64,000 nucleotides of DNA from Terriglobia bacterium (lineage in GTDB: Bacteria; Acidobacteriota; Terriglobia; Terriglobales; Acidobacteriaceae): contig CAWFMU010000021.1 of NCBI GenBank assembly GCA_963816865.1, forward strand, positions 24,450-88,449, written 5' to 3'. The notes beneath the pieces are model-generated. The model saw nothing but the letters and a program-made list of their open reading frames with translations. It ran no database searches and was not told the DNA's origin. Made by a program: the position numbers and the translations under genes. Below are positions 39,635 to 63,936 of the stretch, piece by piece (positions within the stretch are counted from its first letter, which is position 1; each line of letters starts with the position of its first letter).

Positions 39635-39643
39635 GGACATACG

Positions 39644-47277: not shown

Positions 47278-48774
47278 GTGATGTCATTCCTGGGAATTGA
47301 CGTAGGTACTGGAGGAACACGCGCGCTCGTCATTGACGAAGCCGGACGTGTCATCGCCTCCGCGACAGAGGAGCACCGCGACTTCGCCTCACCTCAAATC
47401 GGCTGGGCGGAACAGGATCCCGGCGACTGGTGGCGCGCCTGCGGCCTGGCGGTGCGCAAGGTGCTGGCCAAAGCTCAACTGAGCGGTGATCAGATTGCCT
47501 GCGTTGGTTTGTCCGGACAGATGCACGGGGCAGTCCTCCTGGACGAACGCTCTCAGGTTGTACGGCCTGCGCTGATCTGGTGCGACGTCAGGACAGAAAA
47601 GCAGAGCCGAGACCTAACGGCGCAAATTGGCGCTGCCCGCCTGATTGAGCTCACATCCAACCCTGCCCTCACAAATTTCACTTTGACCAAATGTTTGTGG
47701 GTCCGGGAGAACGAACCCGAGTTGTGGAAGAAGGTCCGCTCGGTCATGCTGCCCAAAGATTACGTCCGGTTGCAACTGACCGGAGAAAAGGCAACCGACA
47801 TGGCCGACGCCTCGGGCACGCTGCTGCTCGACGTGGCGCATCGCCGCTGGTCTAAGGAAATTTTGCAGGCGGTACAAATGGAAGAGTCGGTTCTGCCTAA
47901 GCTCTACGAGTCACCAGACGTCTGTGGGCGGATCTCGTCAGCCGGCGCCGCCGCTACCGGCCTGCGAGTCGGAACACCAGTCGTAGCGGGCGCAGGAGAT
48001 CAGGCCGCGGGAGCGATTGGAATGGGAATTGTTTCTCCCGGCAAGGTGAGCGCAACCATCGGGACTTCGGGTGTCGTCTTTGCCGCCACGGCGCGCCCCT
48101 CGCTCGATCCCAAGGGACGCCTGCACACGTTTTGCCATGCGCTTCCGGGGCGCTGGTTCGTAATGGGCGTGACCCAGGCTGCTGGGCTTTCTCTTCGCTG
48201 GTTCCGGGACCAGCTCGCCTGCTCTACGAACGGCAACAGCGATTCCTACGAGCAGCTCACCGCCGGGGCGGCGAACATCCCGGCCGGATCCGATGGCCTG
48301 CTTTGGGCTCCCTACCTTATGGGCGAGCGCACTCCTTACCTCGATCCGACTGCACGCGGAATGCTCGTTGGCTTGACCGCGTCTCACACCCGAGATCATG
48401 TAATTCGAGCAATCCTGGAAGGAGTCGCATTCAGCCTGCGCGATACGTTCACGATCTTCAAGGAGATCGAAGTCCCGGTTGAGACCATTCGACTGGGTGG
48501 CGGTGGCGCCAGATCCAGGCTTTGGCGTCAAATCCAGGCGGACATTTATGGACAGCAGGTCGAGATCGTCGAAGCGGAAGAAGGAGCCGCCTACGGCGCG
48601 GCAATCCTGGCGGGAGTCGGCGCAAAAGCCTGGCCGTCGGTTGATGCTGCCTGCGAAGCGGTGGTGCACGTTGCCAGTAGTGTGAGTCCGAATTCTGACA
48701 ACTTGAAGGTTATGGAAAAGGCATACGCGAGCTACCGCCGCATGTATCCAGCCATGAAGTCCATCCTGAATTAG
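47278..48774 (+). CDS. xylB: xylulokinase (FGGY carbohydrate kinase)
   Basis: Intact 498 aa: LGIDVGTGGTRALV, GLSGQMHGAVLLD, AGAGDQAAGAIGMG, RLGGGGARSRLWRQIQADI. The start may be ATG 47281. Confidence 0.8.
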   Translation: MMSFLGIDVGTGGTRALVIDEAGRVIASATEEHRDFASPQIGWAEQDPGDWWRACGLAVRKVLAKAQLSGDQIACVGLSGQMHGAVLLDERSQVVRPALIWCDVRTEKQSRDLTAQIGAARLIELTSNPALTNFTLTKCLWVRENEPELWKKVRSVMLPKDYVRLQLTGEKATDMADASGTLLLDVAHRRWSKEILQAVQMEESVLPKLYESPDVCGRISSAGAAATGLRVGTPVVAGAGDQAAGAIGMGIVSPGKVSATIGTSGVVFAATARPSLDPKGRLHTFCHALPGRWFVMGVTQAAGLSLRWFRDQLACSTNGNSDSYEQLTAGAANIPAGSDGLLWAPYLMGERTPYLDPTARGMLVGLTASHTRDHVIRAILEGVAFSLRDTFTIFKEIEVPVETIRLGGGGARSRLWRQIQADIYGQQVEIVEAEEGAAYGAAILAGVGAKAWPSVDAACEAVVHVASSVSPNSDNLKVMEKAYASYRRMYPAMKSILN

Positions 48775-48793: not shown

Positions 48794-49477
48794 TCAGACC
48801 GCGGATGCTGCGCGCAACTCATTCCGCCGAGCGCTGAGGAAATCCAGATACTCCTCCATCCCATCTCCGCTTTTGGCGGAGAGCCTGAAAACCCGCATCC
48901 CTGGCCGTACCGCCTGTATGTTGCCGTAAGCCGAGTGCCAGTCAAATTCAACCGCGGATGCCAGATCCATCTTGGTTACCACGGCAACGTCGGCACTGTT
49001 GAAGATTGTCGGGTACTTCAGCGGTTTGTCCTCGCCTTCAGTGACCGAGATCAGCACCACCCGAAGATTCTCACCGAGGTCATAGGACGACGGACAAACC
49101 AGGTTCCCAACATTCTCGATGAAAAGAAAATCAAGGCTATTGAGGTCCCATTCCTCCAGAGAATTCTGGACCATGGCCGCCTCAAGATGACAGAGCGTGC
49201 CGGTTGTGATCTGCTTGACCGGAGCCCCGCTGCGCGCCAACCGGATGGCATCGTTCTCCGTGGCAAGGTCTCCCACCAGGGCGGCAACACGGTAATTTTG
49301 ACCAAGGAGCGAAAGCGTCTTTTCCAGAAACATTGTCTTTCCCGTGCCCGGGCTCGACACCAGACTGACGACCAATACTCCCGCGGCGCGAAACTGCTCG
49401 CGCAGCCCGCGGGCCGTAATATCATTCTGTTTCAGAACGTTCTTCCTGACTTCGACTAAGCGGGGTTGGCTACCCAT
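48794..49477 (-). CDS. hypB: hydrogenase nickel-incorporation GTPase HypB
   Basis: ATG 49477 after GGAGA. P-loop SSPGTGKT, ENVGNLVCP, VVTKMDL. It overlaps the hypA 3' end. Confidence 0.9.
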   Translation of the reverse strand: MGSQPRLVEVRKNVLKQNDITARGLREQFRAAGVLVVSLVSSPGTGKTMFLEKTLSLLGQNYRVAALVGDLATENDAIRLARSGAPVKQITTGTLCHLEAAMVQNSLEEWDLNSLDFLFIENVGNLVCPSSYDLGENLRVVLISVTEGEDKPLKYPTIFNSADVAVVTKMDLASAVEFDWHSAYGNIQAVRPGMRVFRLSAKSGDGMEEYLDFLSARRNELRAASAV

Positions 49478-49821
49478 TCTTCTATCTCCAATGCAACGAC
49501 TTCGATTTCTTTGCCGTGAACGATCTCCGACGTAGGAGTGCCGCATTCGGTACAACAAAACAGCTGGATCGAACTGACCGGACGCTGCGCCTGGCAGCCT
49601 GGACAAAAGACGATGACGGGAACATCTTCGATCACGATGCGTGACCCGGCAAGTGCCGTGCCTTCAGATGCCATCTCATAGGACGCCAGCAGAGCCTCCT
49701 TCACCACACCCGAGAGAGCTCCTAATTTCAAGTGCACTGTCATAATTTTAACGTTGCTCCGGCGTTCGATTTCTTCTTCCGCCAGTTCGACAATGCTCAT
49801 TGCGATTGAGAGTTCGTGCAT
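49456..49821 (-). CDS. hypA: hydrogenase nickel-insertion protein HypA
   Basis: MHELSIAMSIVE N-terminus (Ni site) and a zinc motif CPGC...CTEC. Confidence 0.9.
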   Translation of the reverse strand: MHELSIAMSIVELAEEEIERRSNVKIMTVHLKLGALSGVVKEALLASYEMASEGTALAGSRIVIEDVPVIVFCPGCQAQRPVSSIQLFCCTECGTPTSEIVHGKEIEVVALEIEEWVANPA

Positions 49822-52097
49822 AGCTCCCCTCTTGGATTACGTTCAAGCTGCCCAAATGCCGCCAGGGCCGCCTGCCCCAGGCTGATTCCACCATCATTCG
49901 CCGGGACGGCATGGTTCGTCCAAATCTGTACGTTGGCGCTCCCCAGCAAGCCTTTGACATCTTCCAGCAGCAATTCGTTCTGGAAAACGCCTCCGGAAAG
50001 AACCACAATGCTTAGGTCATAGGCCTTGCATGTGGCTGCCAGCGCGGCACATACGCCCCCGGCGAAGCCCCGCTGGAAAGCACGCGCAATCTCCCGTGGA
50101 TTCCGCCCGCGAAGCCGGTCAACAATAATGGAGCGCAGCAACGGCCGAAAATCCAATTCGCGATCCGTGAAAGGAAACTGATACGGCGCCGCGTCGGGCA
50201 CGGTGCGAGCTAGCTGCTCCAGCCACATTGCTGCCTGCCCCTCGAATGTAGCCTCCCGGGTAAAGCCCAGAAGCGCGGCCGCGGTATCGAAAAGCCGCCC
50301 CACTGAAGTCGTCTTAAAGGTCCGCACACCCTTGCGAATTAATTCCAGCGCAGCTTCGTATCGCTCAGGAAAATCGAAAGGTGGCGCGGTCAGGTCCGGC
50401 AATCGATCGAGCTGCTCCAGGAAACCAGCGGCGGCCTGGACCGGATGTTGCGCCGCCGCGTCACCGCCAGCTAAAAACGCACTGCGCAGGTGAGCGACGC
50501 GTTCAAATCCCCCGCGGACACTGCCCACAAAAATCTCTCCGCCCCAAATGCTGCCATCATCGCCGTAACCGGTGCCGTCGAAGCTGACGCCTGCAACCCG
50601 TGTCTCCCACTCGCCCCGCTCCGCCAGCACCGAAGCAATGTGGGCACGATGATGCTGCACCCCAACCAATTGCGGGACATCAAGCGCCATCGCATGGGCG
50701 GTAGACAGATATTGGGGATGAGAGTCGTGCACCACCAGCAGCTCTTCCACCCGCACTTCGTACATAGAAATCAGGTCTTGCACCGTTTCTTGAAATGCGC
50801 GCAACGATTGGTAATCCCCCAAATCGCCGATATGCTGGCTCACGAATGCCTGGCCGTCCACAACCAGAGTGATGGCATTTTTCAGATCGGCGCCAAGCGC
50901 CAAAATAGGCCGCTTCGTCGGAAACGCCGCCACCGCGCCCGGGGCATAGCCGCGGGCCCGGCGCAGAACGGCCGAACCAAACGCCCCCACTCGGACGACG
51001 GAATCGTCAACCCGCCGTGCAATGGGACGTTGGCCGATCAGAAATGCATCAGCAATTCCAGTAAGACGATCAATCGCCTCGTCATCTTCGTATGCGATTG
51101 GTTCACTCGATCGGTTGGCGCTGGTCATTACTAAAATGTCGGGGGCACCCGCTGCGAAAAGAAGGTGATGCAACGGCGTGTAAGGCAGCATCACCCCGAG
51201 TTCATTGTTGTCGGGAGCAACCCCGGCAATAAACACTTTTGCGGGCGCAAGCACGATCGGCCGGGCGCTGGACCTGAGCAAGCCTGCACCTTCCTCGGAA
51301 AGGTCGACTAAGGTCCGTACAACGTTGACGTCCCTCGCCATAAGCGCAAACGGCTTTTCCTTCCGGTACTTGCGTTCGCGCAAGGCCGCCACTGCCAGGG
51401 CATTCCTGGCGTCGCAAGCCAGATGGTATCCGCCGAGCCCTTTCACCGCCAGAATGCTGCCCTGGCTGAGCAACTGCGCCGCTTTGCGGATGCAGGCTTC
51501 GCTGCCATGCGTGTCCCCCGCGGCGGAATGCAGGTAATAGCCGGGTCCACAGCTCCCGCAAGCCACCGGCTGTGCATGAAATCGGCGGTTGCCCGGATCG
51601 TGATACTCCGCATCGCAGTACTCGTCGAGCGGCCAATGCTGCATGGTTGTGTTGGGCCGATCGTACGGCAGACCCAGCACGACCGTGTAACGCGGGCCGC
51701 AGTTGGTGCAGTTGATGTAGGGATACCAGTGGCGCCGGTCTGCTGGATCGAAAAGCTCTTTCAGGCAGTCATCGCACACAGGAAGGTCGGGCGAGATGCG
51801 GACCGTGGGCCGATATTGATGTTGGCTTTCACGAATCGTGAACTCATTCAGTCCGACCGGGAGGGTGCTCTGGATCTCGATTTCAGCAATGCTGGCGGCC
51901 GCGGGCGGCTGCGTTCTCAAGTCCTGAACAAACGCTTGCAGGCCCGGCTCAGCGCCTTCTAGGTAAATCTCGACCCCCTCTTCGCCGTTCAACACCCATC
52001 CCGCAAGCGTGTTAGCGCGCGCCAGACGATACACAAACGGACGGAAGCCGACGCCCTGCACCACCCCACGCACTCGAATGGAGCAAGCGCTGACCAT
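49797..52097 (-). CDS. hypF: carbamoyltransferase HypF
   Basis: ATG 52097. Acylphosphatase domain (IRVRGVVQGVGFRPFVYRLA), two Zn fingers (CDDCLKEL...CTNCGPRYT; CGSCGP), and YrdC-like and Kae1-like domains. Intact. Confidence 0.95.
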   Translation of the reverse strand: MVSACSIRVRGVVQGVGFRPFVYRLARANTLAGWVLNGEEGVEIYLEGAEPGLQAFVQDLRTQPPAAASIAEIEIQSTLPVGLNEFTIRESQHQYRPTVRISPDLPVCDDCLKELFDPADRRHWYPYINCTNCGPRYTVVLGLPYDRPNTTMQHWPLDEYCDAEYHDPGNRRFHAQPVACGSCGPGYYLHSAAGDTHGSEACIRKAAQLLSQGSILAVKGLGGYHLACDARNALAVAALRERKYRKEKPFALMARDVNVVRTLVDLSEEGAGLLRSSARPIVLAPAKVFIAGVAPDNNELGVMLPYTPLHHLLFAAGAPDILVMTSANRSSEPIAYEDDEAIDRLTGIADAFLIGQRPIARRVDDSVVRVGAFGSAVLRRARGYAPGAVAAFPTKRPILALGADLKNAITLVVDGQAFVSQHIGDLGDYQSLRAFQETVQDLISMYEVRVEELLVVHDSHPQYLSTAHAMALDVPQLVGVQHHRAHIASVLAERGEWETRVAGVSFDGTGYGDDGSIWGGEIFVGSVRGGFERVAHLRSAFLAGGDAAAQHPVQAAAGFLEQLDRLPDLTAPPFDFPERYEAALELIRKGVRTFKTTSVGRLFDTAAALLGFTREATFEGQAAMWLEQLARTVPDAAPYQFPFTDRELDFRPLLRSIIVDRLRGRNPREIARAFQRGFAGGVCAALAATCKAYDLSIVVLSGGVFQNELLLEDVKGLLGSANVQIWTNHAVPANDGGISLGQAALAAFGQLERNPRGELCTNSQSQ

Positions 52098-52099
52098 GT

Positions 52100-52336
52100 T
52101 TAATCCATTCCTACGATGCAGCCGTGACCTTGCCAGCCCACCTGAATGACTTTGCCATCCTCGACCAGCACCGGAACGCTGCGCTGCCCTGGGGCCAGAT
52201 CGCTCATGCGATGACGCGCGATCGGGTCCGCCTCGACGTCGTACTCGACGAACTCCGATCCCTTCCACTCCAGCCACTCCCGCATATCCTGCGTATAGGG
52301 ACAGCGGGTCGCGCCAAAGAGCTCAAGCTTGGCCAT
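52100..52336 (-). CDS. glutaredoxin-fold small protein with monothiol CPYT site
   Basis: 78 aa: KLELFGATRCPYTQDMREWL...VPVLVEDGKVIQVGWQGHGCIVG. It overlaps the SIS gene stop, and its own stop lies 2 nt upstream of the hypF start. Confidence 0.7.
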   Translation of the reverse strand: MAKLELFGATRCPYTQDMREWLEWKGSEFVEYDVEADPIARHRMSDLAPGQRSVPVLVEDGKVIQVGWQGHGCIVGMD

Positions 52337-53507
52337 GGCTCAATACCTCCAGGGTTTCGCGAATGATGTGATAGATCGAAGCTTGCACTTCTTGAATACG
52401 CGGAATGTAGTCGCACTGCACAACGACAGGAAAATCCGCCAACCCGCGCCGCTTGATCTCCCCGCCGTCGTACCCCAGCAATGCGACGGTCAAAAGGTTG
52501 CGTTTGCGGGCTTCTTCGAGCGCCATGATGATATTTCGCGATCCGCCGCTGGTAGAAATTGCGACGGCAATATCTTCGGGACGCGCCTGCGCGATGAGCT
52601 GGCGAAGAAAAACCACGTCGGTACCGACATCGTTAGCGATCGCACTGATATTTGCCGGTTCTAGGGCCAACGATACGGCAGGAATAGGACGATAGCCCGC
52701 CGGTGGCATCACGCAGTCGAGCGCCCAATCGTTACAGTCCGTGGCCGAACCGCCATTGCCGAAGAGAATCAGCTTTCCTCCCCGCGCCAGCCGTTCGTGG
52801 ATTGCGATAGCGGTCTTGCTGATCGGTTCGGCCTGTTCTCGCGCCACCTGGGATCGCAGCGCAGAGTCGTCTCGTACTTTCATCTGGATTGAGGCCGCGA
52901 CTTCCGCCAATAAATCACCGGTGTTCTGTTTTTCCTGGCCCAGAAATGGATACAGGAATCCGGCTGCGCCAACATCGTGGCCCAGTTCGCTATGTTCGAG
53001 AAAGACGTGAACACTCTCCCACAGCGTGTGGTAGAGGATCTCAATCATTTCCTGGTGAATGAACGGGTCTTGAGTAAAAGCTTCGACTGCATAGGAGCAA
53101 TCCACTCCAGGCAGCGCAAAAGTAAGCGCATTACGGGCATGGGCAAACTTCAGGGCAGAGCGAACTTCGTCGTCGCCTTGCGGAGGACCGAAGCCCATCA
53201 CGATGTCTTCGGGACGAAGAATGGTTTCCAGCCAGGGCCGGAACATGATGGAGAGATCGAGTGCAGGCAGTGCTCGCTTGCCCACGATGACGGGATGAAC
53301 AAATTCTACGGAAACGTGTTGCGCATCGGTGGCATAGGGCCCACGCCCAAAGGCAAGCAGGCGTCCGCCCGCAAGAAAGCGCTCGGCCATCGAGCGGCAA
53401 GCCTCAGCCAGGCGGGGCGCCTCTTGCGAGAAGAAGCTTTCCACCAGTTGATTACGAACCAGCAACCACTCCCCGACTTGAGTTTCCAGTCCACAGACTG
53501 TCGCCAT
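52323..53507 (-). CDS. tandem SIS-domain (GmhA-like) protein
   Basis: Intact 394 aa. The C-half is canonical GmhA-like (LILFGNGGSATDCNDWA...AISTSGGSRNII...LLTVALLGYDGG). The N-half is degenerate (LLAFGRGPYATDAQHVSVEFVHP). Confidence 0.7.
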   Translation of the reverse strand: MATVCGLETQVGEWLLVRNQLVESFFSQEAPRLAEACRSMAERFLAGGRLLAFGRGPYATDAQHVSVEFVHPVIVGKRALPALDLSIMFRPWLETILRPEDIVMGFGPPQGDDEVRSALKFAHARNALTFALPGVDCSYAVEAFTQDPFIHQEMIEILYHTLWESVHVFLEHSELGHDVGAAGFLYPFLGQEKQNTGDLLAEVAASIQMKVRDDSALRSQVAREQAEPISKTAIAIHERLARGGKLILFGNGGSATDCNDWALDCVMPPAGYRPIPAVSLALEPANISAIANDVGTDVVFLRQLIAQARPEDIAVAISTSGGSRNIIMALEEARKRNLLTVALLGYDGGEIKRRGLADFPVVVQCDYIPRIQEVQASIYHIIRETLEVLSHGQA

Positions 53508-53525
53508 GTGTTGACCTGAGACGTT

Positions 53526-54660
53526 CTAGCAAATTCGCGGCAGCGGATCACCAACCAGCATGTCCACAATGCGGCTGCCTCCATATAGAGTAGTTACAAG
53601 GACGCTCCCGGCAGGCTGCTCGCGCACTTCGCCGATCAGTCGCGCCTCTTCGCCGCCCGAACACAGGTTCAAAGCATTGAGCGCCGCATCCGCGTACTCC
53701 GGAGCCACCACGGCAAGAAACTGGCCTTCATTGGCGATATGCAGCGGATCCAGTCCCAATAACTCACACGCCCCGCGCACTGCATTGCGCACCGGCAGCT
53801 GCTCTTCGATGATCGTAATTCCCAGTCTGCAATCGCGCGCCAGTTCGTTGAGCGAGGTGGCAACCCCGCCGCGGGTGGGGTCGCGCATCCATCGCACTCC
53901 GGGCCCGGCAGCCTTCACCAGTGCCTCGACCAGAGGAAGAACGGAGCGCGTGTCAGAAGAAAGATCAGCCTCGAGGTCGAGCTCGCCCCGCGCCAGCAGG
54001 ATCGTGATGCCGTGATCGCCAATCGGCCCGGAGAGAAGAATTTTGTCACCGGAACGAACCGACCTCGGGATCGAGCGTCACGCCACGCAGCGGCCTCCCA
54101 ATACCCGTGGTCGTGATGTACATGGAATCGGCCTTGCCGTGTTCGACGACCTTGGTGTCGCCGCCCGCGATCTTCACTCCCGCCTTGCGCGCCGCATCGC
54201 CCATGGCGCGGACTTCCGCCTCCAGCACCGGCGTCGGCAGCCCGGCTTCGAGCACGTAGGTAACGACCATGGCTTCCGCCCTCGCGCCCGAAACAGCCAG
54301 ATCATTCACGGTGCCGTTCACAGCCAACTCTCCGATGGAGCCTCCCGGGAAAGTCAGAGGCTTCACCACAAAACTGTCGGTGGTGATTGCGATGCGGGTG
54401 GCGCCAAAATCCAGGTGGGCAGCGTCGCCCAGCGGTTCAGAAGAGGACGCAAAAAGAAGAGGCGCAAAGAGACCTTCTACAAGCCTGCGGCTGGCCTTAC
54501 CTCCCGCGCCGTGAGCCATCTCGATTTGAGGTTCGCGGAAGCGGACCTTGGGCGGAGTATTGATGGCCGGGCTCTCGGCCGCGGCAACGTCTAGGCCACT
54601 GACGCTATGCTGGTTACCATTGCCGTTTTGCGGTGTTCGTAGTTGAAGTACGCTGCGCAT
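53526..54660 (-). CDS. hypE: hydrogenase maturation protein HypE (frame-disrupted as sequenced)
   Basis: AHGAGGKASRRLVE... in ORF 54046-54711. After one net +1 shift near 54055 the body continues (GDKILLSGPIGDHGITILLARGELDLE...VRWMRDPTRGG) to the C-terminal PRIC. The start codon is uncertain (54660 or the ATG of MAHGAGG). Confidence 0.85.
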
Positions 54661-55721
54661 GATCCCTCGGATGAAACCATAAGTGCGCCTACAGGATGCT
54701 CGGGAGTGCACTCATTCCCAAACAGCTTGCATTGATGGGGTTTGAGAACGCCTTTTAACACCTCTCCGCATTGCGCGGCCTTGGGATCGGTCACGCGCAC
54801 GCCGGGAACATCGAAACGCCGCTCCGAGTCCCATTCGGCGTAACTGTCCTTAATGCGCAGAGCCGACTGCGAGATAAACCCGAGACCCCGCCACTCAAAA
54901 TAGGGGCGCAACTCAAAAACCTCTGCCATAGCCTTAAGCGCGGCGCTGTTTCCTTCCCACGGCACCACGCGCTTGTACTGGTTTTCGATTTTAGATTCGG
55001 ACGCCTTGAGCTGGCGCAAGACCATCACGATGGACTGCAGGATATCGAGCGGCTCGAAGCCGGAGACGGCGACAGGCTTGTTCTCATCCTTGGCAATCCA
55101 CTCATAAGGCCGGCAGCCAATCACCGTCGAAACATGACCCGGGCCGATAAATGCGTCAATGCGCATGTCGGGAGAATCGAGAATGGCGCGGATCGCCGGA
55201 ATAATCGTGACATGATTGCAGAACACCGAGAAATTGTGGATGCCCTCCGCCTTGGCTCGCACCAGCGTCAACGCAGTAGACGGAGCCGTGGTCTCGAAAC
55301 CGATGGCAAAGAACATCACATGCTTTTCGGGATTCAGCCGCGCCAGCTTGAGCGCGTCGGAGGGCGAGTACACGATGCGAACGTCCATGCCGCGAGCCTT
55401 GTGTTCAAGCGGGCTGCCCTTCGTTCCCGGAACCCGCATCATGTCGCCAAAGGCGGCGAAGATCACATTAGAGTTCTGAGCGATAGCCAGCCCATCGTCA
55501 ATCCGCCCCATGGGAAGCACGCACACCGGACAACCGGGGCCGTGGATCAATTCAATATTCGACGGAAGCAGGTCTTTCAACCCGAAGCGATAGATGGCAT
55601 GAGTATGTCCGCCGCATACTTCCATGATGCGGTAGTGACGGTTCGGATCAGCAAGCCGGCGGATTTCTTCCGCGGTTCTGGTAATGACCTCCGGTTCGCG
55701 AAACTCGTCAACAAATTTCAT
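54591..55721 (-). CDS. hypD: hydrogenase maturation protein HypD
   Basis: Intact 376 aa: GGHTHAI, HGPGCPVCV, GFETTAPS, GPGHVS, C-terminal Cys cluster. ATGA overlap with hypC. Confidence 0.95.
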   Translation of the reverse strand: MKFVDEFREPEVITRTAEEIRRLADPNRHYRIMEVCGGHTHAIYRFGLKDLLPSNIELIHGPGCPVCVLPMGRIDDGLAIAQNSNVIFAAFGDMMRVPGTKGSPLEHKARGMDVRIVYSPSDALKLARLNPEKHVMFFAIGFETTAPSTALTLVRAKAEGIHNFSVFCNHVTIIPAIRAILDSPDMRIDAFIGPGHVSTVIGCRPYEWIAKDENKPVAVSGFEPLDILQSIVMVLRQLKASESKIENQYKRVVPWEGNSAALKAMAEVFELRPYFEWRGLGFISQSALRIKDSYAEWDSERRFDVPGVRVTDPKAAQCGEVLKGVLKPHQCKLFGNECTPEHPVGALMVSSEGSCAAYFNYEHRKTAMVTSIASVA

Positions 55722-56053
55722 TGGATCAAGCCCTTCGATCCTGATTCGACTGTCTTCGCCGATCCGCTGTCAGCATTCTCCAGTCCGTAGCCCTCGACCT
55801 CTTGCATGGCCGATTCGGCCTCGCCTAATGCTCTGAGCGTCCGCATCTGGTCAATTGCGTCTTCTTCACTAATCTTGCTCATGGCAAAGCCAACGTGAAT
55901 GAGCACCCACTCTCCCGGCTCAGGCATGTCATCCTGCAGCAATCCGAGATCAACCTTGCGGCGTACTCCGACCACATCAATGAGCGCGGTCTTCCGGTGG
56001 TCCGATCCCTCGGAAAAGATCTCAACAATCTGCCCGGGTATGGCTAAGCACAT
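55718..56053 (-). CDS. hypC: hydrogenase assembly chaperone HypC/HupF family
   Basis: The N-terminus MCLAIPGQIVE is diagnostic. It carries a longer acidic C-terminal tail than typical HypC. Confidence 0.9.
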   Translation of the reverse strand: MCLAIPGQIVEIFSEGSDHRKTALIDVVGVRRKVDLGLLQDDMPEPGEWVLIHVGFAMSKISEEDAIDQMRTLRALGEAESAMQEVEGYGLENADSGSAKTVESGSKGLIQ

Positions 56054-56057
56054 GCGC

Positions 56058-56630
56058 TCACACTTTCTTTCGAGCCAGGATGTTGAACGTGAATTTCAGC
56101 TCGTCTTTCACTTTCAACGCACCCCCCGCGACGGAAGCGAGTTTCAGATCATAGTCCGTTTGCAGCAGCGAGAACGTGCCAAAAGCCCGCAACGAATCGG
56201 CAGTCAGCGTCACTCTTGCCGGTACGGCCTGAGGACGGGTTACGCCGTGCATGGTCAAATCGCCATTGAGCGTAACCGTATACTGCCCTTCTCCGGCCTT
56301 GGTGGCGGTCATGCTCGAACACTCGTAAACGATCTCGGGATAGGATGAAGTTTCCAGGATCTCCTGTTGCATCATGCGCTCGATCTCGCTCTTGTCCTTG
56401 TCGGAAATATCATCCTTCACCGACAACGACGCCGCCTGGATGACCACTTTGAGCGAAGCCTGCTCCAGATTGTCGGTGTTCGCTTCGGCCTCCGCCTTGA
56501 AGTCGCGGATGACTATGGTCGGACTGTGACCGAACGCCGACAGCATTCCCCCGGAGAATACCTGCACCGTGAACTGGCTCGCCCTTATGTCCGCGACGTA
56601 TTGAACCCTGGTTTCCGTGGTTGGTCCCAT
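56058..56630 (-). CDS. YceI-like (polyisoprenoid/lipid-binding lipocalin-fold) protein with no signal peptide
   Basis: GGAGAAAA RBS. 190 aa with the YceI hallmarks FTVQVFSGGMLSAFGHSPTI..., GDLTMHGVTRPQAVPARV and KVKDELKFTFNI. The N-terminus MGPTTETRVQYV is not a leader. Confidence 0.7.
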   Translation of the reverse strand: MGPTTETRVQYVADIRASQFTVQVFSGGMLSAFGHSPTIVIRDFKAEAEANTDNLEQASLKVVIQAASLSVKDDISDKDKSEIERMMQQEILETSSYPEIVYECSSMTATKAGEGQYTVTLNGDLTMHGVTRPQAVPARVTLTADSLRAFGTFSLLQTDYDLKLASVAGGALKVKDELKFTFNILARKKV

Positions 56631-56643
56631 TTTTCTCCGGGCC

Positions 56644-56856
56644 TTACATATTCCGCAATTTTAGGTAGCGATCCACGTCAGGCAAAGCCGCCTGCATCAG
56701 ATTGCCGACCCCAAGTTGTCCCAGGTAGCGTCTCACCATGGGGTTGGAGAGGATCAGTCCTGTACCAAACATAATCAAGGCTGCTCCTCCGAGCATGTAC
56801 AACGTGTCCTTGTCAGTTCCGGAGTGGTTCGCGCTTTCAGACAATTCCATGGCCAC
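56644..56856 (-). CDS. 70-aa single-helix membrane mini-protein
   Basis: GTG 56856 lies 6 nt after GAGGAG. There is one hydrophobic helix (LYMLGGAALIMFGTGLILS) followed by an amphipathic tail. It is tightly packed between the protease and YceI genes. Confidence 0.5.
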   Translation of the reverse strand: MAMELSESANHSGTDKDTLYMLGGAALIMFGTGLILSNPMVRRYLGQLGVGNLMQAALPDVDRYLKLRNM

Positions 56857-56868
56857 GGCAGGCTCCTC

Positions 56869-57714
56869 TCACTTTACGTCGTTGATTGTGGAACTACCTT
56901 CATCCCCGCTCAATATCTTCCCGACCAACGCCTCGACTAATCTCACCGCTTCGTCCACCGCGATTTCTATCGGCTCACTCAATCCCATCTGGCCCTCTTC
57001 CGGACCGAGCGTGCCGGGTTCGCATCCGACCAACAGTACTCGTTTCAACGGACCACCCATGGATTGAGCCAGGCGCAGCACGTTCAGCGGATTCATGCTG
57101 TGAGCCTCCACCGCGCCCTCTTCCGGTCCGCCCAGATTCTCCAGGTCCGGCTCAATCACATACAGCGTGCCCGCCGGCTCGCCCCGCGGACAGGCATCAA
57201 CCAGAATGGTGGTGTCATATCCATCCAGCAACGCGTAAGCCAGGTCATAGCCCCGGATGCCGAAGTCAGTCACGCGAACACCCGCTGGCAACTCTCGGCC
57301 CGAAAGGCGCCGCGCGACCTCTACTCCGAAGGCATCGTCCCCAAGAAAAATGTTCCCGATTCCAGCGACCAGGATCCGCGGCTTTGCGGACTGGCTGACT
57401 CCGCCCTCAAACTCTTCGCCCAGAGGTTCGACTTCTTCCGCATCGAAGAAGAAGCGGTGTCCCGGTTGCCGCATCAGGCCGATATCGCGGCCCGGATCGT
57501 CATCCACAACGACACATACGTGAACCTTGCCCTCGTAATCTTGCTCAATCCCCTCAATGACGGCGGTTTTCCCCGCCAGCGCAATATCCATGATGTCGCC
57601 GCGCGGCTTCGGCCGCAGCCGCACGCGACTTCCCTGCTTGACAGTGGTACCGTCAATACACAAGTCGTCTACCGGCTTCTTATCTTCGAGGAGCTGCCAC
57701 TCCCATTCGTTCAT
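56869..57714 (-). CDS. [NiFe]-hydrogenase maturation endopeptidase (HupD/HyaD-like) fused to an N-terminal ~115-aa domain of unknown function
   Basis: The C-terminal 165 aa match the protease: ILVAGIGNIFLGDDAFGVEVARRL...ILVDA...HSMNP. The N-terminal part (MNEWEWQLLEDKKPVDDLCIDGTTVKQGSRVRLRP...PGHRFFFDAEEVEPL) is an extra domain. ATGA overlap upstream. Confidence 0.8.
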   Translation of the reverse strand: MNEWEWQLLEDKKPVDDLCIDGTTVKQGSRVRLRPKPRGDIMDIALAGKTAVIEGIEQDYEGKVHVCVVVDDDPGRDIGLMRQPGHRFFFDAEEVEPLGEEFEGGVSQSAKPRILVAGIGNIFLGDDAFGVEVARRLSGRELPAGVRVTDFGIRGYDLAYALLDGYDTTILVDACPRGEPAGTLYVIEPDLENLGGPEEGAVEAHSMNPLNVLRLAQSMGGPLKRVLLVGCEPGTLGPEEGQMGLSEPIEIAVDEAVRLVEALVGKILSGDEGSSTINDVK

Positions 57715-58715
57715 GGCGTCTCCTCTTCCACCGAACGCAATTCGCGTAGTGTTCCATGGAGCTTCATCAAGTGCTCCATCGGCAGGCTCTCCGTTCGTTC
57801 GAGCATTTTGCGGGCACGCTCATCGGCATGACGCATCTCGTGCTTCTCGGCATCAGTCATGGTCATGATGCGAAGCGCAAGAATTTCGTCAATCTCAGTC
57901 CCATCGAACAAGTCGCCCGGGCTTTCCGGCGCAATTTGCGGGTAGTCATACAAGATGATGGGAGAGGAAAGCATGGTGTCGTGATCGCCCTCAGCCCCGA
58001 CCAATACCGGCCAGGTTCCGACATTCCGGCAACTTCCGGCGAGTTCCGCAAATTCGCCGGGGGGATCGAGCAAAGATACAAAGCGGCCATCCGTCACGCC
58101 CAGGAGAATATGAGCCGACACCAGCGATCGCATGAGGGCCTGATCACGCGATTCTTCGACACCCTCGATCGGGGCCAGGTTTTCGACCAGCACGGTGAGC
58201 TTGAATACTTCATGCCGGACCTCTTCAACCGTGATCCGCACCGCTCCCCGAACAGAGTCCTGGCTGCGGACGATCTGTCCCGCTGGCGGGCTGCCTCCCG
58301 CCGCCAAGTTTTCGACATCCCGTTGCGCTGGAAAGTTGAATGCCCAAAAGACCGGTTTGGACAGCAATGCACTGAGTGTGCAGATCGGAACCGCTACGTC
58401 ACATTCGATCGCTTCCTGCCACGAGCCGCACGCTTCACCGTTTCCATTCGATGCGTGCGATTCAGTGAGGCGTGCCACCAACTTTAGAAACCTGACTTTG
58501 ATCTCAATCGCCGTCAGTGAAGATCCTTCAACCAGGCACTCCGTCTGATTGCTCCAGGCATCCGAACCGGCTTGCGCTTCGCTGTAGGCCCGCGGATAAA
58601 GCACGCCAAAATTAAATCGCTGGCGGTTCTTTACCGACGACGGGCGATAGGGATAGAGCATGTACCCTTCGTAAAGCACGGCGTTGGCAATCGCGTCGAT
58701 GGATTTCGTATTCAT
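57711..58715 (-). CDS. conserved hydrogenase-cluster protein of unknown function
   Basis: Intact 334 aa (MNTKSIDAIANAVLYEGYMLYPYRPSSVKNRQRFNFGVLYP...). ATGA overlaps at both ends tie it translationally to its neighbours. Confidence 0.6.
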   Translation of the reverse strand: MNTKSIDAIANAVLYEGYMLYPYRPSSVKNRQRFNFGVLYPRAYSEAQAGSDAWSNQTECLVEGSSLTAIEIKVRFLKLVARLTESHASNGNGEACGSWQEAIECDVAVPICTLSALLSKPVFWAFNFPAQRDVENLAAGGSPPAGQIVRSQDSVRGAVRITVEEVRHEVFKLTVLVENLAPIEGVEESRDQALMRSLVSAHILLGVTDGRFVSLLDPPGEFAELAGSCRNVGTWPVLVGAEGDHDTMLSSPIILYDYPQIAPESPGDLFDGTEIDEILALRIMTMTDAEKHEMRHADERARKMLERTESLPMEHLMKLHGTLRELRSVEEETP

Positions 58716-59361
58716 CGCGTCACTTCTGCTTCCGCCGGAAGCATTTTCTCCAGCACCTGCTCCCAGGTGGGAATCCCGTTATCAACCTTGTATTGATACA
58801 ACCGCTCGAACACATCGCGCCGCAAACACAGCCAGGCGCTGTTCGGGTAGTAGATGTCCATCATTTCGTTCCAGGCCTTTACCGGCAGGCGAAAGCGAGC
58901 CTCTTTGTCCCAGGGGATGGGCGCGACCTGCAACGCTCCATCGCCATCGGCGTAGAAAACTGTTCCGCTGAAGAGAAAATTCAAAGGCACGTCGCCATCG
59001 GCTAGGCCATGAAAATATTTCGTTGACGCGACGTTGAAATCGAATGTGCATGGCACGGGAAGATCAACCACAATGCTGTCCTGAAACGCGGGAGCTACCA
59101 CGCTGGCGTGGGTCCAGAGCATGTTCTTCAGGGTCTGGCCCCAGCGCTCCGGTTCGCCAAAAAGATCACGCATCCTGGCTTTGGTCCTCGCCGCTGTATT
59201 GCCGCCGCGTCACTTCCAACTGGATCTGGCAACGCAAAGCGACAGAGTGCACCACTTCATTCGGGGCGTTGTTGGTAATTGCGGAGCTTGAATAGCAGCG
59301 TAGGAGCCGCCGCGAAGCGCTGCGCTTCCGCCTTCTCGATCTTGAAACTCAGGTCAGGCAC
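58712..59361 (-). CDS. conserved hydrogenase-cluster protein (DUF6084-like by recollection; frame-disrupted as sequenced)
   Basis: GTG 59361 (VPDLSFKIEKAEAQRFAAAPTLLFKLR). The reading moves +1 twice (about 59270 and about 59175) into ORF 58712-59173 (DLFGEPERWGQTL...VPCTFDFNVASTKYF...FLFSGTVFY). Confidence 0.6.
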
Positions 59362-60021
59362 TGGTTTTGTCTCCTACTACAGTTGCCCGTCGTTTGAGCA
59401 AATCGAAAAAGTTGCCGATTTCCTGCCAGACCTCGGTGCCGCCCGAGAGCCCGCTTCCAGTTCGCGCGAATCAGCCCGACCAGCTTGTAACATTCGTCAA
59501 TCGGGAGCACGTAATACTCGGGCGCCGTAAACCCGCGAGCATGCCCCACCCGGTTCACCAGGAGCGCTTCAACATCGGACTCCATCTCTCTAAGGACGGG
59601 ATTAGCATCCTCAATGTCCGTGCCAGGTCTCGAGCTCCAGCAGCGATTCCGTAGCGCCCGCCGGGCTGGGATAAAAAGCCACCACCCTCGCATCCGGCGT
59701 GCTGCGGAAAAAGAAAACCATATTGATGGGGACCATCAGGCTCTCCCATTGGCCATCGGAGAGATGGAAATCTGCCAGGGAAAGCACGCGTCGGGGAACG
59801 CGTTTGTATTTCGCCCCCATGGCACCGAACAGTATCGCGCAAGCGTCACAAGTACACAGCAGCTTGCGAGTGCCCGGTTCGATCAGATGAGGATGGTGGC
59901 TGCCAACCTCGGCGCTGCACAGTTCGCAGCGTTCAACATCCCGCTTGCGCCGGACAAACTGGCGCAGCGCTCCAAATGCATTCTCGTATCCGGGCTGGCC
60001 CACGTCCATGAGACGGCTCAC
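59354..60021 (-). CDS. conserved hydrogenase-cluster protein with Cys motifs (DUF5947-like by recollection; frame-disrupted as sequenced)
   Basis: ORF 59611-60021 (CELCSAEV...LLCTCDACAILF), then ORF 59349-59693, then a third frame ending ...GLSGGTEVWQEIGNFFDLLKRR. The stop at 59354-59356 overlaps the next GTG (GTGCCTGA). Confidence 0.6.
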
Positions 60022-60027
60022 GATCCC

Positions 60028-60607
60028 TTATTCATGCACCGCAGCGGTGGTAACACTGCCCAGCTTACCCAGAGGAACAAAACCGGACGAACCTGTGGGC
60101 TCTTCCAGTCCCTCGATCACCAAATGCCCCATATCCGGCGCAGCCTCGTACAGAGCATCCTCCACCATCGCTCTTGAGAGTCTTGCCCGTGGAACCGCAC
60201 GCGTGCCCGGTGATCTGAATCTGCAGCCGGACGGTGCCGCCGTCAATGCCAAGCAGTTCCAGCTCGCCTCCGCCTTTACGCACGCGCGGCTGAACTTTTT
60301 CGACCGCCTGGGCTACGCGTCCCTCAAGATCCAGCGGGTGAAGACCATAGAGCACCAGGAGGCTGCCGACCAGAGGATCGCGGCCCAAATCATCGATGAT
60401 GCCCTGCCCTGAATCGTCGTTTTTCGCGACGACTTCCAGGACCCGCTCCAAACCCACGGCATGCAAATCGAGCAGCAATTGCACCAACGCCTTTGCGCTG
60501 GCCCGGGACTCCGCGTCCGAAATATTTTCCAACTCGGCGACCAGTTCGCCTATCCGTTGAACTTTTACCTGAAAGTCTTTGTCATCCGGCATGTTGTTCT
60601 CAGGCAC
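60028..60607 (-). CDS. HhyE-like putative Fe-S protein with NifU C-terminal-type domain (frame-disrupted as sequenced)
   Basis: ORF 60065-60607 (...GGELELLGIDGGTVRLQIQITGHACGSTGKTLK) continues +1 in ORF 60028-60252 (AMVEDALYEAAPDMGHLVIEGLEE). It sits immediately downstream of the large subunit, as the mycobacterial HucE/HhyE genes do. Confidence 0.65.
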
Positions 60608-60677
60608 GTCTTTCTAAGAAACCGCGAGGAGTGAAGGCCACAAGCGTAACCCTCACTCCTCGAAATATTCTGCTCGA

Positions 60678-62474
60678 TTAAGGTTGAACGCCAAACATCG
60701 GCGAGTGATGCGTCTTCAAAACCTTCCCGCCACCCAGGTACATATGGACACCGCACGGTAAGCAGGGATCGAAGCTCCGCACCGCCCGCATGATGTCTAT
60801 GCCCTTGAATTTGTCCGGCCCGTTCTCCTCGAAGATAGGGGTATTCTGCACCGCATCTTCATACGGACCCGGCGTGCCGTAAATGTCGCGCGGATTGGCG
60901 TTCCAGGGCGTTGGCGGATAGGGATGATAATTGGCGATCTTGCCTTTGCGAATCACGACATGGTGCGAGAGCACTCCGCGGACCGCTTCGTGGAAGCCGC
61001 ATCCGATAGCCTCTTCCGGCACTTTGAAATCCGACCAGGTCTTGGTTTTGCCGGCATGAAGTTCCTCCATCGCCTTCTCGGCGAAATGGAGGGCACACCC
61101 AGCGGCATAAGCCTGGAAGTAAGTGCGGGCGCGATCGCGTTCGATGGCATTGCTCCACTGCGGAATCTTCCACTCGAATTCGACCTCCGGCTTCGACATG
61201 GTTTTCGGCAGATAAATCTTCACGCTCTTGCCGGTGGCCTTGATGTAACCGATATCCACGATCCCGGCGAGTGCCGTAGCCCAGAGCCGGGCAATCGGGC
61301 CGCCGCCTGTATCAAGCGCGAGGTGATCGCCGGTGCGCTTGTCGAACCACCGGGGCGACATGACCCAGGTGTACTTGCCACCGAAGTCGCGCTTTTGCGG
61401 CCGGGGTATCGTGGTCTGGTTCCAGGGATGGTTCTTGTCTACCGGATTCCCCAGCGGATCGGTCTTAACAAAGGTCTCGGCGTTCTTCCAATCGTCGTAG
61501 TACGAACTGCCCAGCAGAATGCGGATGTTCAGGTTGATGTCCACCAGGTCGGTCGTGACCAGCTTGCCGTCCACCACGACGCCCGGCGTGACAAACATCT
61601 TCCGGCCCCAGTCCGTCATGTTCTTGTAGGTGTAGTCACAATGCTCGGGATCATTGAACGACCCCCAACATCCGAGCAGGATGCGGCGGCGTCCCACTTC
61701 TTCGTACCCCGGCAGGGCCTGGTAAAAGAAGTCAAACAAATCATCATGCAGCGGAAGCACTTTCTTCATGAACTCGACGTACTTCATCAGCCTGACAATG
61801 TAATCCGTGAACAACTGCACAGTCGGTACTGTCCCGACTCCGCCCGGATACAGAGTCGAAGGATGCACGTGGCGTCCTTCCATCAGGCAGAACATCTCGC
61901 GCGTCATGCGGCTCATCTGCAGTGCTTCGAGATAAAACGAGCCAGTGAACGGATTAAGCGCCGTCATGATATCGGCGATGGTCTTGAAGCCGTGATCGTT
62001 CGAATGCGGCGCAGCCGTGGCTTGCGCTTTCGTCCATACTTTGGGATTGGTTTCCTTCACCATCTGCTCACAGAAATCGACCCCGACCAGATTGTCCTGG
62101 AAAATGTTGTGATCGAACATGTACTCGGCGGCCTCGCCGAGGTTGACGATCCATTCCGCGATGTGCGGCGGCCTCACTCCGAACGCCATATTCTGGGCAT
62201 AGGTCGCACAGGTGGCATGGTTGTCGCCGCAGATGCCGCAGATGCGGCTGGTGATGAAGTGGGCATCGCGCGGGTCTTTTCCCTTCATGAAAATGCTGTA
62301 CCCACGAAAGATCGAAGAGGTGCTGTGGCACTCCGCTACTTTCTTCGCGTCAAAATCAATTTTTGTAAAGATGCCCAGGCTGCCCACGATGCGGGTAATC
62401 GGGTCCCAATTCATCTCCACCAGATTGCGTGATTTGCTGGGAACGTCTTTGGTGGGTGCTGTGATCGTGCTCAT
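60678..62474 (-). CDS. hhyL: [NiFe]-hydrogenase large subunit, group 1h (Hhy/high-affinity type)
   Basis: Intact 598 aa after an AAGGAG RBS. L1 motif TSRICGICGDNH, L2 motif SFDPCLPCGVH, plus a 21-aa C-terminal extension for proteolytic maturation. Confidence 0.9.
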   Translation of the reverse strand: MSTITAPTKDVPSKSRNLVEMNWDPITRIVGSLGIFTKIDFDAKKVAECHSTSSIFRGYSIFMKGKDPRDAHFITSRICGICGDNHATCATYAQNMAFGVRPPHIAEWIVNLGEAAEYMFDHNIFQDNLVGVDFCEQMVKETNPKVWTKAQATAAPHSNDHGFKTIADIMTALNPFTGSFYLEALQMSRMTREMFCLMEGRHVHPSTLYPGGVGTVPTVQLFTDYIVRLMKYVEFMKKVLPLHDDLFDFFYQALPGYEEVGRRRILLGCWGSFNDPEHCDYTYKNMTDWGRKMFVTPGVVVDGKLVTTDLVDINLNIRILLGSSYYDDWKNAETFVKTDPLGNPVDKNHPWNQTTIPRPQKRDFGGKYTWVMSPRWFDKRTGDHLALDTGGGPIARLWATALAGIVDIGYIKATGKSVKIYLPKTMSKPEVEFEWKIPQWSNAIERDRARTYFQAYAAGCALHFAEKAMEELHAGKTKTWSDFKVPEEAIGCGFHEAVRGVLSHHVVIRKGKIANYHPYPPTPWNANPRDIYGTPGPYEDAVQNTPIFEENGPDKFKGIDIMRAVRSFDPCLPCGVHMYLGGGKVLKTHHSPMFGVQP

Positions 62475-62522
62475 CGTAATCGCTCCTTTGCGTTCTCAGT
62501 TGGGCTGCGTTGGCCAGGCTTC

Positions 62523-63589
62523 TTAATAAGATCGCGGGTGGTAACCAGTCGTCAGCTCCGCGCGCGGGTGCCGCCACTGGGGTTCCTTGTTTACTGTGTT
62601 CTGAGTGATCGAGCGCAAGGCCCGTATCGCGCGACCGTACACCCCGATGCTGGCAGTTGAAACCCGCGCTCCCGGCGGCTCGTCCATGAAGGGCATGAAC
62701 TTGTCAGGAAAGCCGGGCATGGTGCATCCAATACAGATGCCGCCCACGTTGGGGCACCCGCCGATGCCGGCCATCCATCCCCGCTTGGGGACATTGCAAT
62801 TAACCACCGGCCCCCAGCATCCCAGTTTCACGATGCACTTGGGAGAGCCATATACCTCCGCGAAATCACCTTGTTCGTAGTAACCCGCACGATCACAACC
62901 GTCATGCACCGTCTGGCCAAACAACCACGTGGGGCGCAGCTGATCGTCCAAAGGAATCATCGGAGCCAGGCCCGCTACTTGATAGAGAAGGTAGAGCACA
63001 GTCTCCATGAAATTGTCCGGCTGAACCGGACATCCCGGAACATTCACGATCGGCAACCCCGCGCCGGAGCGCCAATCCCAGCCCAGGTAGTCGGCCAGGC
63101 CCATGGCGCCCGTGGGATTTCCTTCCATGGCGTGAATGCCGCCGTAAGTGGCGCAGGTTCCGATGGCGATCACCGCCAATGCCTTGGGCGCCAGCCGGTC
63201 AATCCACTCGTTCGTGGTAATCGGCTGCCCGGTCTTGGGATCGGTTCCCAGCGCCGCCCAGTAGCCTTCCTTCTTGATCGTCTCGTTGGGAATCGAACCC
63301 TCGACCACCAGAACAAACGGATCAAGCTTGCCTTCCCACGCGCGATAGAAAAACTTCATGAAGTCGTCGCCGTTTTCGTAGGCCAGCACGGGATTGTGCA
63401 GGTGAACTTTAGGCAAGGCCGGGAATCGCGCCCAAGCAAAACATCTTCGACACTGGGTTGGGTTGCTGCGGTAATTGAAACCGAATCTCCGTCACAGCCG
63501 AGGCCGGCCGTGATCCAGACTATGTGTACCTCTTTAACAGCCGGCGCTTTTTGCGTACTGCGACCGTAAGGAACCGTCTCTGCTGCCAT
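62523..63589 (-). CDS. hhyS: [NiFe]-hydrogenase small subunit, group 1h, no Tat leader (frame-disrupted as sequenced)
   Basis: ATG 63589 after GAGGAG. The N-terminus is MAAETVPYGRSTQKAPAVKEVHIVWITAGLGCDGDS (ORF 63356-63589). The body is in ORF 62523-63416 (ATYGGIHAMEGNPTGA, NVPGCPVQPDN, CPNVGGICIGCTMPGFPD). There is a net +2 shift near 63415-63445. Confidence 0.85.
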
Positions 63590-63812
63590 AGCTGGATACT
63601 CCTCTCAAGCAAATTGTCGGCATGAAAAATGCCTCGTGTCCTCACACAGATGGCCAAACCGAGAAATTGATCTCAGTGATCTAAATTACAGATCGAACCG
63701 TAGAATCAACCTGTTGCGAAGTGGTTGCAAGGGGAGGGAGCCTGAATTATTTCGCCATGGAAGTACGCTGGCGGACATAGGGGAATCCCCGACCCCGGGT
63801 CGTGTGGGGCGG

Positions 63813-63935
63813 GCGCCCTCGCCCGCCGCTCTTGATGTTGGTTTTGAAGGTGTAGTCCTTGGACTTTCGCAGGTCTTATTTTGAAAGGCTACCGTCAGAG
63901 GTCAAGACAGCGGGCGAGGCCGCCCGCCCTGCACG
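63813..63935. repeat. inverted pair of GC-rich hairpin units (family 3)
   Basis: GTGTGGGGCGGGCGCCCTCGCCCGC at 63813-63837. Its near-perfect reverse complement GCGGGCGAGGCCGCCCGCCCTGCAC lies at 63911-63935, flanking about 73 nt. A related GCGGGCGAgtCGCCCGC unit lies at 11237-11255. Confidence 0.7.
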
Positions 63936-63936
63936 A

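Follow-up and report, generated by a model that had tools for sequence, protein, structure and literature searches.

A group 1h [NiFe]-hydrogenase locus in an uncultured Terriglobia bacterium, in which five broken genes are very probably assembly errors

Group 1h [NiFe]-hydrogenases are the main biological sink of atmospheric hydrogen (H2) and an important mechanism by which soil bacteria survive. Acidobacterial loci of this class (1h/5) have been described as consisting of hhyS, hhyL, hhyE, a HupD protease gene, three conserved hypothetical genes and hypABCDEF (Eichorst 2018, PMC5900883 Fig. 5), and the same figure marks a putative phosphoheptose isomerase (gmhA), a putative glutaredoxin 3 and further hypotheticals. 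The cultured acidobacteria Edaphobacter aggregans, strain KBS 83 and Pyrinomonas oxidize H2 to sub-atmospheric levels, with apparent Michaelis constants (Km(app)) of 95 nM, 173 nM and 35 nM, respectively (PMC8027828), and the actinobacterial-type hydrogenase (AH) of Ralstonia eutropha is reported to be an enzyme of low activity and low affinity, with a Km of about 4 uM (PMC11023054). Here, we describe a hydrogenase locus of 17 genes in a stretch of 64,000 nucleotides from an uncultured Terriglobia bacterium (contig CAWFMU010000021.1 of assembly GCA_963816865.1, positions 24,450 to 88,449), referred to below as the window. All coordinates are window positions; gene calls were taken from a listing of open reading frames (ORFs), and families were assigned by Pfam and NCBIfam scans. 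The locus very likely encodes a functional single-locus group 1h system, with its broken genes being artefacts of assembly.

The two hydrogenase subunits are encoded at the upstream end of the locus. Five genes of the locus, the small-subunit gene among them, are disrupted as sequenced, and "after repair" refers throughout to removal of the single inserted bases that are discussed further below.

62523-63589, minus strand: hhyS, small subunit, 354 residues after repair (Pfam Oxidored_q6 and NiFe_hyd_SSU_C)
60678-62474, minus strand: hhyL, [NiFe] large subunit, 598 residues, intact (Pfam NiFeSe_Hases)

Comparison with solved hydrogenases places both subunits in the same class. HhyL aligns with HofG (chain 5AA5_C) at 1184 bits and 83.3% identity and scores no more than 155 bits with every other solved hydrogenase (115 bits with Huc, group 2a), while repaired HhyS matches HofK (5AA5_A) at 657 bits and 78% identity, with the next class at 170 bits. 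Entry 5AA5 is the AH of R. eutropha (Cupriavidus necator) H16, made up of HofK and HofG, and both identities hold over the full length of the subunits. The translation of HhyL contains TSRICGICGDNH and SFDPCLPCGVH, in which the L1 motif RICGICGDNH and the L2 motif DPCLPCGVH can be read, followed by a C-terminal tail of 21 residues; the His just before this tail is also the last residue of mature HofG. HhyS begins with MAAETVPYGRSTQKAPAVKEVHIVW, has no RRxF motif, and aligns with mature HofK from residue 1. Its GCDGD motif (C32, D35), C145, C186, H228 and seven further Cys are identical to those of HofK, and the cofactor ligands of HhyL and HhyS are all kept relative to 5AA5. Ligation of the proximal cluster by three Cys and one Asp has been described for 5AA5 (PMC11023054). 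Read from its conserved ligands, HhyS is predicted to bind three [4Fe-4S] clusters, the proximal one through three Cys and an Asp, as is characteristic of group 1h.

The surrounding genes agree with this placement. Conserved hypotheticals, a HycI-type protease and hypABCDEF, as expected of group 1h loci, are present, and no cytochrome b family occurs among the 17 locus genes. NCBIfam holds no group 1h-specific models, and none for DUF5947, DUF6084, DUF6893 or the 334-residue protein described below. By sequence comparison, then, the locus is a group 1h (formerly group 5; Hhy or 'actinobacterial-type') [NiFe]-hydrogenase, and the margin over other classes is decisive. The same class had been proposed in an earlier reading made from the sequence without database searches (the sequence-only reading), along with the two HhyL motifs, the 21-residue tail and the lack of a twin-arginine (Tat) leader on HhyS; the motifs and tail can be read in the translation, MAAETVPYGRSTQKAPAVKEVHIVW is indeed free of RRxF, and the class assignment is upheld by the HhyL and HhyS scores and by synteny with E. 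aggregans and Pyrinomonas. A database search returned hundreds of HhyL proteins with 92-99% identity from metagenome-assembled genomes (MAGs) of Terriglobales and 'Ca. Sulfotelmatobacter', and 99% identity is reached by many Terriglobia proteins from metagenomes.

The locus comprises 17 consecutive co-directional genes on the minus strand at 48794-63589, as established from ORFs and Pfam matches. The order is hhyS, hhyL, a NifU-like gene, DUF5947, DUF6084, a gene for a 334-residue protein, an extended maturation protease, DUF6893 and YceI, followed by hypC, hypD, hypE, a double-SIS protein, glutaredoxin, hypF, hypA and hypB. The 15 genes downstream of hhyL are as follows.

60028-60607, minus strand: NifU-like gene in the 'hhyE' position, about 190 residues after repair (Pfam NifU, residues 98-146)
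59349-60021, minus strand: DUF5947 gene, about 220 residues after repair (PF19372 on two fragments)
58712-59356, minus strand: DUF6084 gene, 215 residues after repair (PF19562, from profile position 62 as sequenced)
57711-58715, minus strand: conserved protein of 334 residues without a family, the third 'conserved hypothetical' of 1h loci
56869-57714, minus strand: maturation endopeptidase of the HupD/HycI type, 281 residues (Pfam HycI, residues 131-261)
56644-56856, minus strand: DUF6893 small protein, 70 residues, with a hydrophobic stretch (Pfam PF21833)
56058-56630, minus strand: YceI-like protein, 190 residues (Pfam PF04264)
55718-56053, minus strand: hypC, 111 residues, N-terminal MCLAIPG (Pfam HupF_HypC; NCBIfam TIGR00074)
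54591-55721, minus strand: hypD, 376 residues (Pfam HypD, 507 bits, full profile)
53526-54660, minus strand: hypE, 377 residues after repair, C-terminal PRIC (Pfam AIRS and AIRS_C, two fragments)
52323-53507, minus strand: double-SIS (GmhA-like) protein, 394 residues (two Pfam SIS_2 domains)
52100-52336, minus strand: glutaredoxin-like protein, 78 residues (Pfam Glutaredoxin)
49797-52097, minus strand: hypF, 766 residues from the ATG at 52097 (full HypF domain set; relatives also 766 residues)
49456-49821, minus strand: hypA, 121 residues, MHE N-terminus and two CxxC (Pfam HypA, full profile)
48794-49477, minus strand: hypB, 227 residues from the ATG at 49477, P-loop SSPGTGKT (Pfam cobW/HypB)

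The maturation set is complete: Pfam and NCBIfam recognize each of the six Hyp families as well as a HupD/HycI-type protease, and the proteins carry their signature motifs; HypD, for example, has GPGCPVC and GFETT in its translation, and HypB aligns with its relatives at 100% coverage, with the same hypA/hypB overlap found there. The protease matches NCBIfam TIGR00072 over residues 115-262 (112 bits) and has a conserved N-terminal extension of about 110 residues without a family match, an architecture of 281 residues that is also found in the relatives, E. aggregans and Pyrinomonas. Scans of the 334-residue protein gave no Pfam or NCBIfam match. Every full-length related locus, those of E. aggregans and Pyrinomonas included, encodes it at this position, and its ratio of nonsynonymous to synonymous substitution rates (dN/dS) is 0.13. 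The position of DUF6893 is conserved in Terriglobales and Bryobacterales loci and that of YceI is conserved as well, including in Pyrinomonas (40% identity), and orthologs of the SIS protein adjoin hypE, grx and hypF in Acidobacteriota, Gemmatimonadota, Rhodothermales and Meiothermus.

Three junctions (DUF6084 with the 334-residue gene, that gene with the protease, and hypC with hypD) are ATGA overlaps; at the remaining ones, neighboring genes are separated by 2-70 nt or overlap by 8-70 nt. The genes of the locus presumably form an operon. ORFs, Pfam matches and junctions thus bear out the earlier description of 17 tightly packed minus-strand genes in this order, with three amendments: hypF most likely starts at 52097, giving the 766 residues seen in relatives, and not at the proposed GTG at 52277; for hypB, the likeliest start is 49477, which gives 227 residues; and the locus does not end at hhyS, as the 3' end of a regulator gene lies further upstream at 63937-64000.

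To place this gene set among other genomes, species-representative genomes were scanned with an alignment of the SIS protein and then searched by tblastn with all 17 window proteins. The identical 17-gene order was found in 34 of 80 species-representative loci, most of the others being cut by contig or flank ends, and the hypCDE-SIS-grx-hypF block is found in Gemmatimonadota, Rhodothermales and Meiothermus as well. The DNA of the window is only about 88% identical to the nearest species representative, and the organism is an uncultured member of the Terriglobia. The accessory set is therefore standard for this clade and represents an already published architecture; the sequence-only reading had regarded it as non-standard, which does not hold in view of the 34 loci with the same order and of the published figure (PMC5900883 Fig. 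5). Taken together, double-SIS, glutaredoxin (Grx), YceI, DUF6893, DUF5947, DUF6084 and the 334-residue protein form a fixed module under purifying selection that is present in many species and several phyla.

As had been stated before, exactly five genes are frame-disrupted as sequenced, namely hhyS, the NifU-like gene, DUF5947, DUF6084 and hypE. A five-way DNA alignment of the window with four close loci (L001-L004) traces all of these disruptions to eight insertions of one nucleotide each, which are the only CDS-disrupting differences private to the window. They lie at 63433 and 63416 in hhyS, 60172 in the NifU-like gene, 59620 and 59453 in DUF5947, 59284 and 59182 in DUF6084, and 54069 in hypE; the downstream third of the locus (the 3' end of the SIS gene, grx, hypF, hypA and hypB) contains no private indels. 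Three of the four close loci have every gene intact, with lengths of 354 residues for HhyS, 189-212 for the NifU-like protein, 217 for DUF5947, 215 for DUF6084 and 330-377 for HypE (377 in two of three gene calls). Deleting the eight bases restores uninterrupted ORFs of orthologous length with no internal stops. For instance, repaired HhyS is identical to HofK over the shifted stretch; the DUF5947 fragments match consecutive positions of PF19372 (1-104 and 105-158); repaired DUF6084, which begins at a GTG and overlaps DUF5947 by 8 nt, is 96% identical to its L004 ortholog; and repaired HypE is uninterrupted and 92% identical to that of L004. The repaired genes have dN/dS values of 0.03-0.11 against L004, and the same holds between two intact relatives.

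Similar disruptions occur outside the hydrogenase genes. At least four unrelated genes of the window are likewise split: those encoding ribosomal protein S1 (rpsA, 13725-15504), a major facilitator superfamily (MFS) transporter (17848-19180), an FG-GAP/ASPIC protein (27990-29265) and cytochrome bd subunit I (cydA, 38152-39634). This count is a lower bound obtained by inspection of ORF pairs and Pfam matches, a codon-usage frame plot having been too noisy. The MFS transporter is read in two frames, one matching profile positions 1-179 and the other 188-346, and CydA is likewise divided between frames that match positions 1-177 and 182-418. These splits point to single-base indel errors throughout the assembly. 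A SelA-like ORF pair (19537-20514 and 19218-19643) was considered as a further frameshift and found to be half supported, as the second ORF has no Pfam match. In the sister MAGs L001/L006, L007 and L056, other genes of this locus are hit by one-base indels that are private to each of them. The Microflora Danica MAGs of the relatives are Nanopore-only Flye assemblies with one round of Medaka polishing (PMC12313526), and their authors acknowledge residual Nanopore errors in MAGs of lower coverage (PMC12313526).

Because repair restores full length, dN/dS is low, unrelated genes are split and sister MAGs have indels of their own, the five broken genes are very probably the product of assembly error in the form of eight one-base insertions. 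The alternative that the locus is a genuinely decaying pseudogene cluster, with real frameshifts and a recent loss of atmospheric-H2 oxidation, would account for the fact that 5 of 17 genes, hhyS and hypE among them, are untranslatable as sequenced, and for the clustering of indels, not all of them in homopolymers, in the half of the locus that holds the structural and accessory genes. Decay appears quite improbable, however, since nonsense substitutions, deletions and rearrangements are absent and one base removed per site restores full length, dN/dS (0.03-0.11) is not above that between intact relatives, the essential-type genes rpsA and cydA of the same window are split in the same manner, and within this locus the private indels differ from one sister long-read MAG to the next. 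Furthermore, all eight events are insertions, whereas gene decay in bacteria is normally biased toward deletions. Programmed ribosomal frameshifting or transcriptional slippage, by which the frameshifts would be decoded, has nothing in its favor beyond the presence of +1 insertions inside otherwise conserved reading frames. No slippery motif is common to the eight sites, the insertions are absent from all four to five close relatives, and the paired insertions, 17-170 nt apart, give a net +2 that would require two events per gene; this explanation was rejected for want of a shared motif and of conservation, and we consider it vanishingly improbable. The sequence-only reading had held that genuine disruptions of hhyS and hypE would mean a dead locus. 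This is very probably not the case here, as the disruptions are best explained as assembly errors.

An intact locus could still encode a low-affinity, oxygen-insensitive enzyme like R. eutropha AH, used at elevated H2, for instance close to niches that produce H2, and not to scavenge the gas from the atmosphere. The closest solved homologue (83%) is this very enzyme, with its Km of about 4 uM (PMC11023054), and no sequence feature is known to set affinity. On the other hand, E. aggregans, KBS 83 and Pyrinomonas are phylogenetically closer and syntenic, and they reach sub-atmospheric H2 with constants of 35-173 nM (PMC8027828), so that we regard a low-affinity enzyme as unlikely. It should be noted that several points weigh against a functional high-affinity system with artefactual gene breaks. 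The artefact call was made from assembled sequence, and a Nanopore origin of the window is inferred from its relatives only. Eight sites fall in the first 9.4 kb of the locus, a higher density of private indels than could be shown elsewhere in the window (at least 4-5 split genes in 48 kb), and all eight are insertions with only about half of them in short homopolymers, which is unusual for homopolymer error. In addition, the NifU-like protein does not have the CxxC thought necessary for HhyE function, and affinity cannot be read from sequence, with the closest solved enzyme, R. eutropha AH, being of low affinity.

With these points taken into account, we favor the reading that the locus is complete and almost certainly functional. 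In the working that we propose, HhyL would hold the NiFe(CN)2CO site, with the four Cys of RICGIC and DPCLPC as ligands, and the distal cluster of HhyS would be ligated by one His and three Cys. The HhySL heterodimer would reside on the cytoplasmic side, since HhyS has no Tat signal, and electrons would pass to the aerobic respiratory chain through a partner, without a cytochrome b. Cyanide ligands would be supplied by HypF and HypE (the C-terminal PRIC of which is present after repair), Fe(CN)2CO would be assembled on HypC and HypD, nickel would be inserted by HypA and HypB, and the extended HupD-type protease would remove the 21-residue tail after His577. The genes for the NifU-like protein, DUF5947, DUF6084, the 334-residue protein, DUF6893, YceI, double-SIS and Grx are clade-typical accessories, all under purifying selection. 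Expression may be induced during starvation, and the enzyme probably lets the bacterium survive on trace H2 under such conditions, judging by its homology with those of E. aggregans and Pyrinomonas. By analogy with these two and strain KBS 83, it would oxidize H2 at atmospheric concentration. Within 2-10 kb of the locus lie cydA and cydB (38152-40690) and an NDH-2 gene (45728-47113), which are possible respiratory partners.

The gene following hhyL deserves separate consideration. HhyE has been defined by a CxxC in its NifU-like domain together with two more CxxC motifs at the C-terminus, and truncated HhyE proteins exist (PMC6883350). In the window, a NifU-like domain is encoded directly downstream of hhyL, but the protein has a single Cys in total, with GHAC in place of the CxxC, and it ends about 50 residues past the NifU domain in a stretch that is free of Cys and thus of the two C-terminal CxxC. 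Among 60 related loci, GxxC is found in 46 and CxxC in only 4 (two Pyrinomonas, one Gemmatimonadales and one Rhodothermales). The Pyrinomonas HhyE (287 residues) has CPACGG...CPVCG at its C-terminus, and the NifU-like protein of E. aggregans has Cys at neither position of the CxxC. The NifU-like gene is therefore HhyE-like by position and fold, but its product lacks the metal-binding motifs that define the family.

In the neighboring DUF5947 protein, by contrast, the Cys and His residues of a CxxC...HxH...CxCxxC motif are unchanged in 58 of 58 loci. An exhaustive search returned 1376 DUF5947 homologues, a minority of them 290-377 residues long, and Pfam identifies natural fusions from metagenomes of NifU with DUF5947 (P0190 and P0218; 367-377 residues) and of Rieske with DUF5947 (P0158; 328 residues). 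Because NifU+DUF5947 and Rieske+DUF5947 fusions exist, the data suggest that the NifU-like protein and DUF5947 act together. DUF5947 may carry a metal site in this clade, which is a lead, not a finding. That DUF5947, and not HhyE, could be the metal or redox module of Hhy in Terriglobia and Bryobacterales is a tentative idea that we hold to be rather doubtful. It starts from the finding that the NifU-like proteins of these two groups no longer have their cluster-binding cysteines, yet E. aggregans at least oxidizes atmospheric H2. If true, group 1h hydrogenases would have in DUF5947, and not in HhyE, a conserved partner for electron transfer or cluster delivery. That CxxC has been lost in a clade whose activity is proven offers a small lead on how Hhy delivers electrons to the respiratory chain. 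As a separate observation, the fusions link DUF5947 functionally to iron-sulfur modules of the HhyE/HucE type.

Three further features lie within or upstream of the locus.

63937-64000, minus strand: 3' end of a LuxR/GerE-type response regulator (last 20 codons and stop), running off the window
63590-63936, minus strand: intergenic, presumed promoter region upstream of hhyS
60625-60662, minus strand: stem-loop with a 17-bp stem right after the hhyL stop (terminator scan)

The regulator translation, SARELVQHAIQWTVGEKKSA followed by the stop, matches the C-termini of the regulators of L002 and L004. In L001, L002 and L004, a second hhyS is followed by a PAS histidine kinase and then by the LuxR-type regulator; this module lies at about 5100-8550 of those loci, about 3.6 kb upstream in the closest relatives of the window, and its orphan hhyS-like gene encodes 350-361 residues. 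An additional hhyS copy about 3.6 kb upstream has been reported (Giguere 2021, PMC8027828). The arrangement of orphan hhyS, kinase and regulator is reminiscent of H2-sensing pairs of regulatory hydrogenase and kinase. A scan for sigma-70-like promoters upstream of hhyS gave one match (63905-63878), a count not above shuffled expectation, and a plus-strand ORF at 63636-63884 has a low G+C content at third codon positions (0.46) and is probably not a gene. At the other end of the locus, hypB faces a convergent sugar-kinase-like ORF on the plus strand (47278-48774), their stops being 20 nt apart. The stem after hhyL, GGAGTGAGGG...CCTTCACTCC, recurs at this position in most Terriglobales loci, with loops that vary, a few compensatory changes (e.g., GGAGCGAGGG/CCTTCGCTCC in L035) and, in many cases, a T-run. 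This strong hairpin is probably a partial or attenuating terminator or a 3' stabilizer of the mRNA that sets hhySL apart from the accessory genes.

Private frameshifts are also seen in the hydrogenase loci of many Microflora Danica long-read MAGs, affecting differing genes in L001/L006, L007, L056, L020, L025 and L063, and hhyL itself is frameshifted in L056, L009 and L015. Automated hydrogenase 'pseudogene' calls in the Microflora Danica catalogue would be unreliable, and a frame disruption in a MAG built from long reads only needs support from the reads before it is scored as a pseudogene. With regard to the enzyme itself, the window adds one more uncultured Terriglobia lineage with a described enzyme class and architecture, and brings no conceptual change.

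The locus can be compared with several described systems. The Hhy of Mycobacterium smegmatis (MSMEG_2722-2718; PMC6883350), which was compared by its published description, belongs to the same group, has a NifU-like gene directly after hhyL and likewise has no cytochrome b; its HhyE, which is required for activity (PMC6883350), carries the CxxC of the NifU domain and two C-terminal CxxC, whereas the window protein has one Cys. R. eutropha AH shares the L1 and L2 motifs, GCDGD, the lack of a Tat signal and the His of C-terminal cleavage, and differs in that its host belongs to the Betaproteobacteria, its genes are megaplasmid-borne and its affinity for H2 is low (PMC11023054). The locus of Pyrinomonas methylaliphatogenes K22 has nearly the same order, with hypAB moved before hypC, and encodes a long HhyE with CxxC. 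Edaphobacter aggregans DSM 19364 has the same order, without a match for DUF6893 or YceI, and its HhyL is 87% identical. Overall, the cultured acidobacterial Hhy loci of E. aggregans, KBS 83 and Pyrinomonas share gene families and order with the window, with HhyL at 87-88% identity, and they have an extra hhyS copy upstream (PMC8027828), as do the closest relatives of the window.

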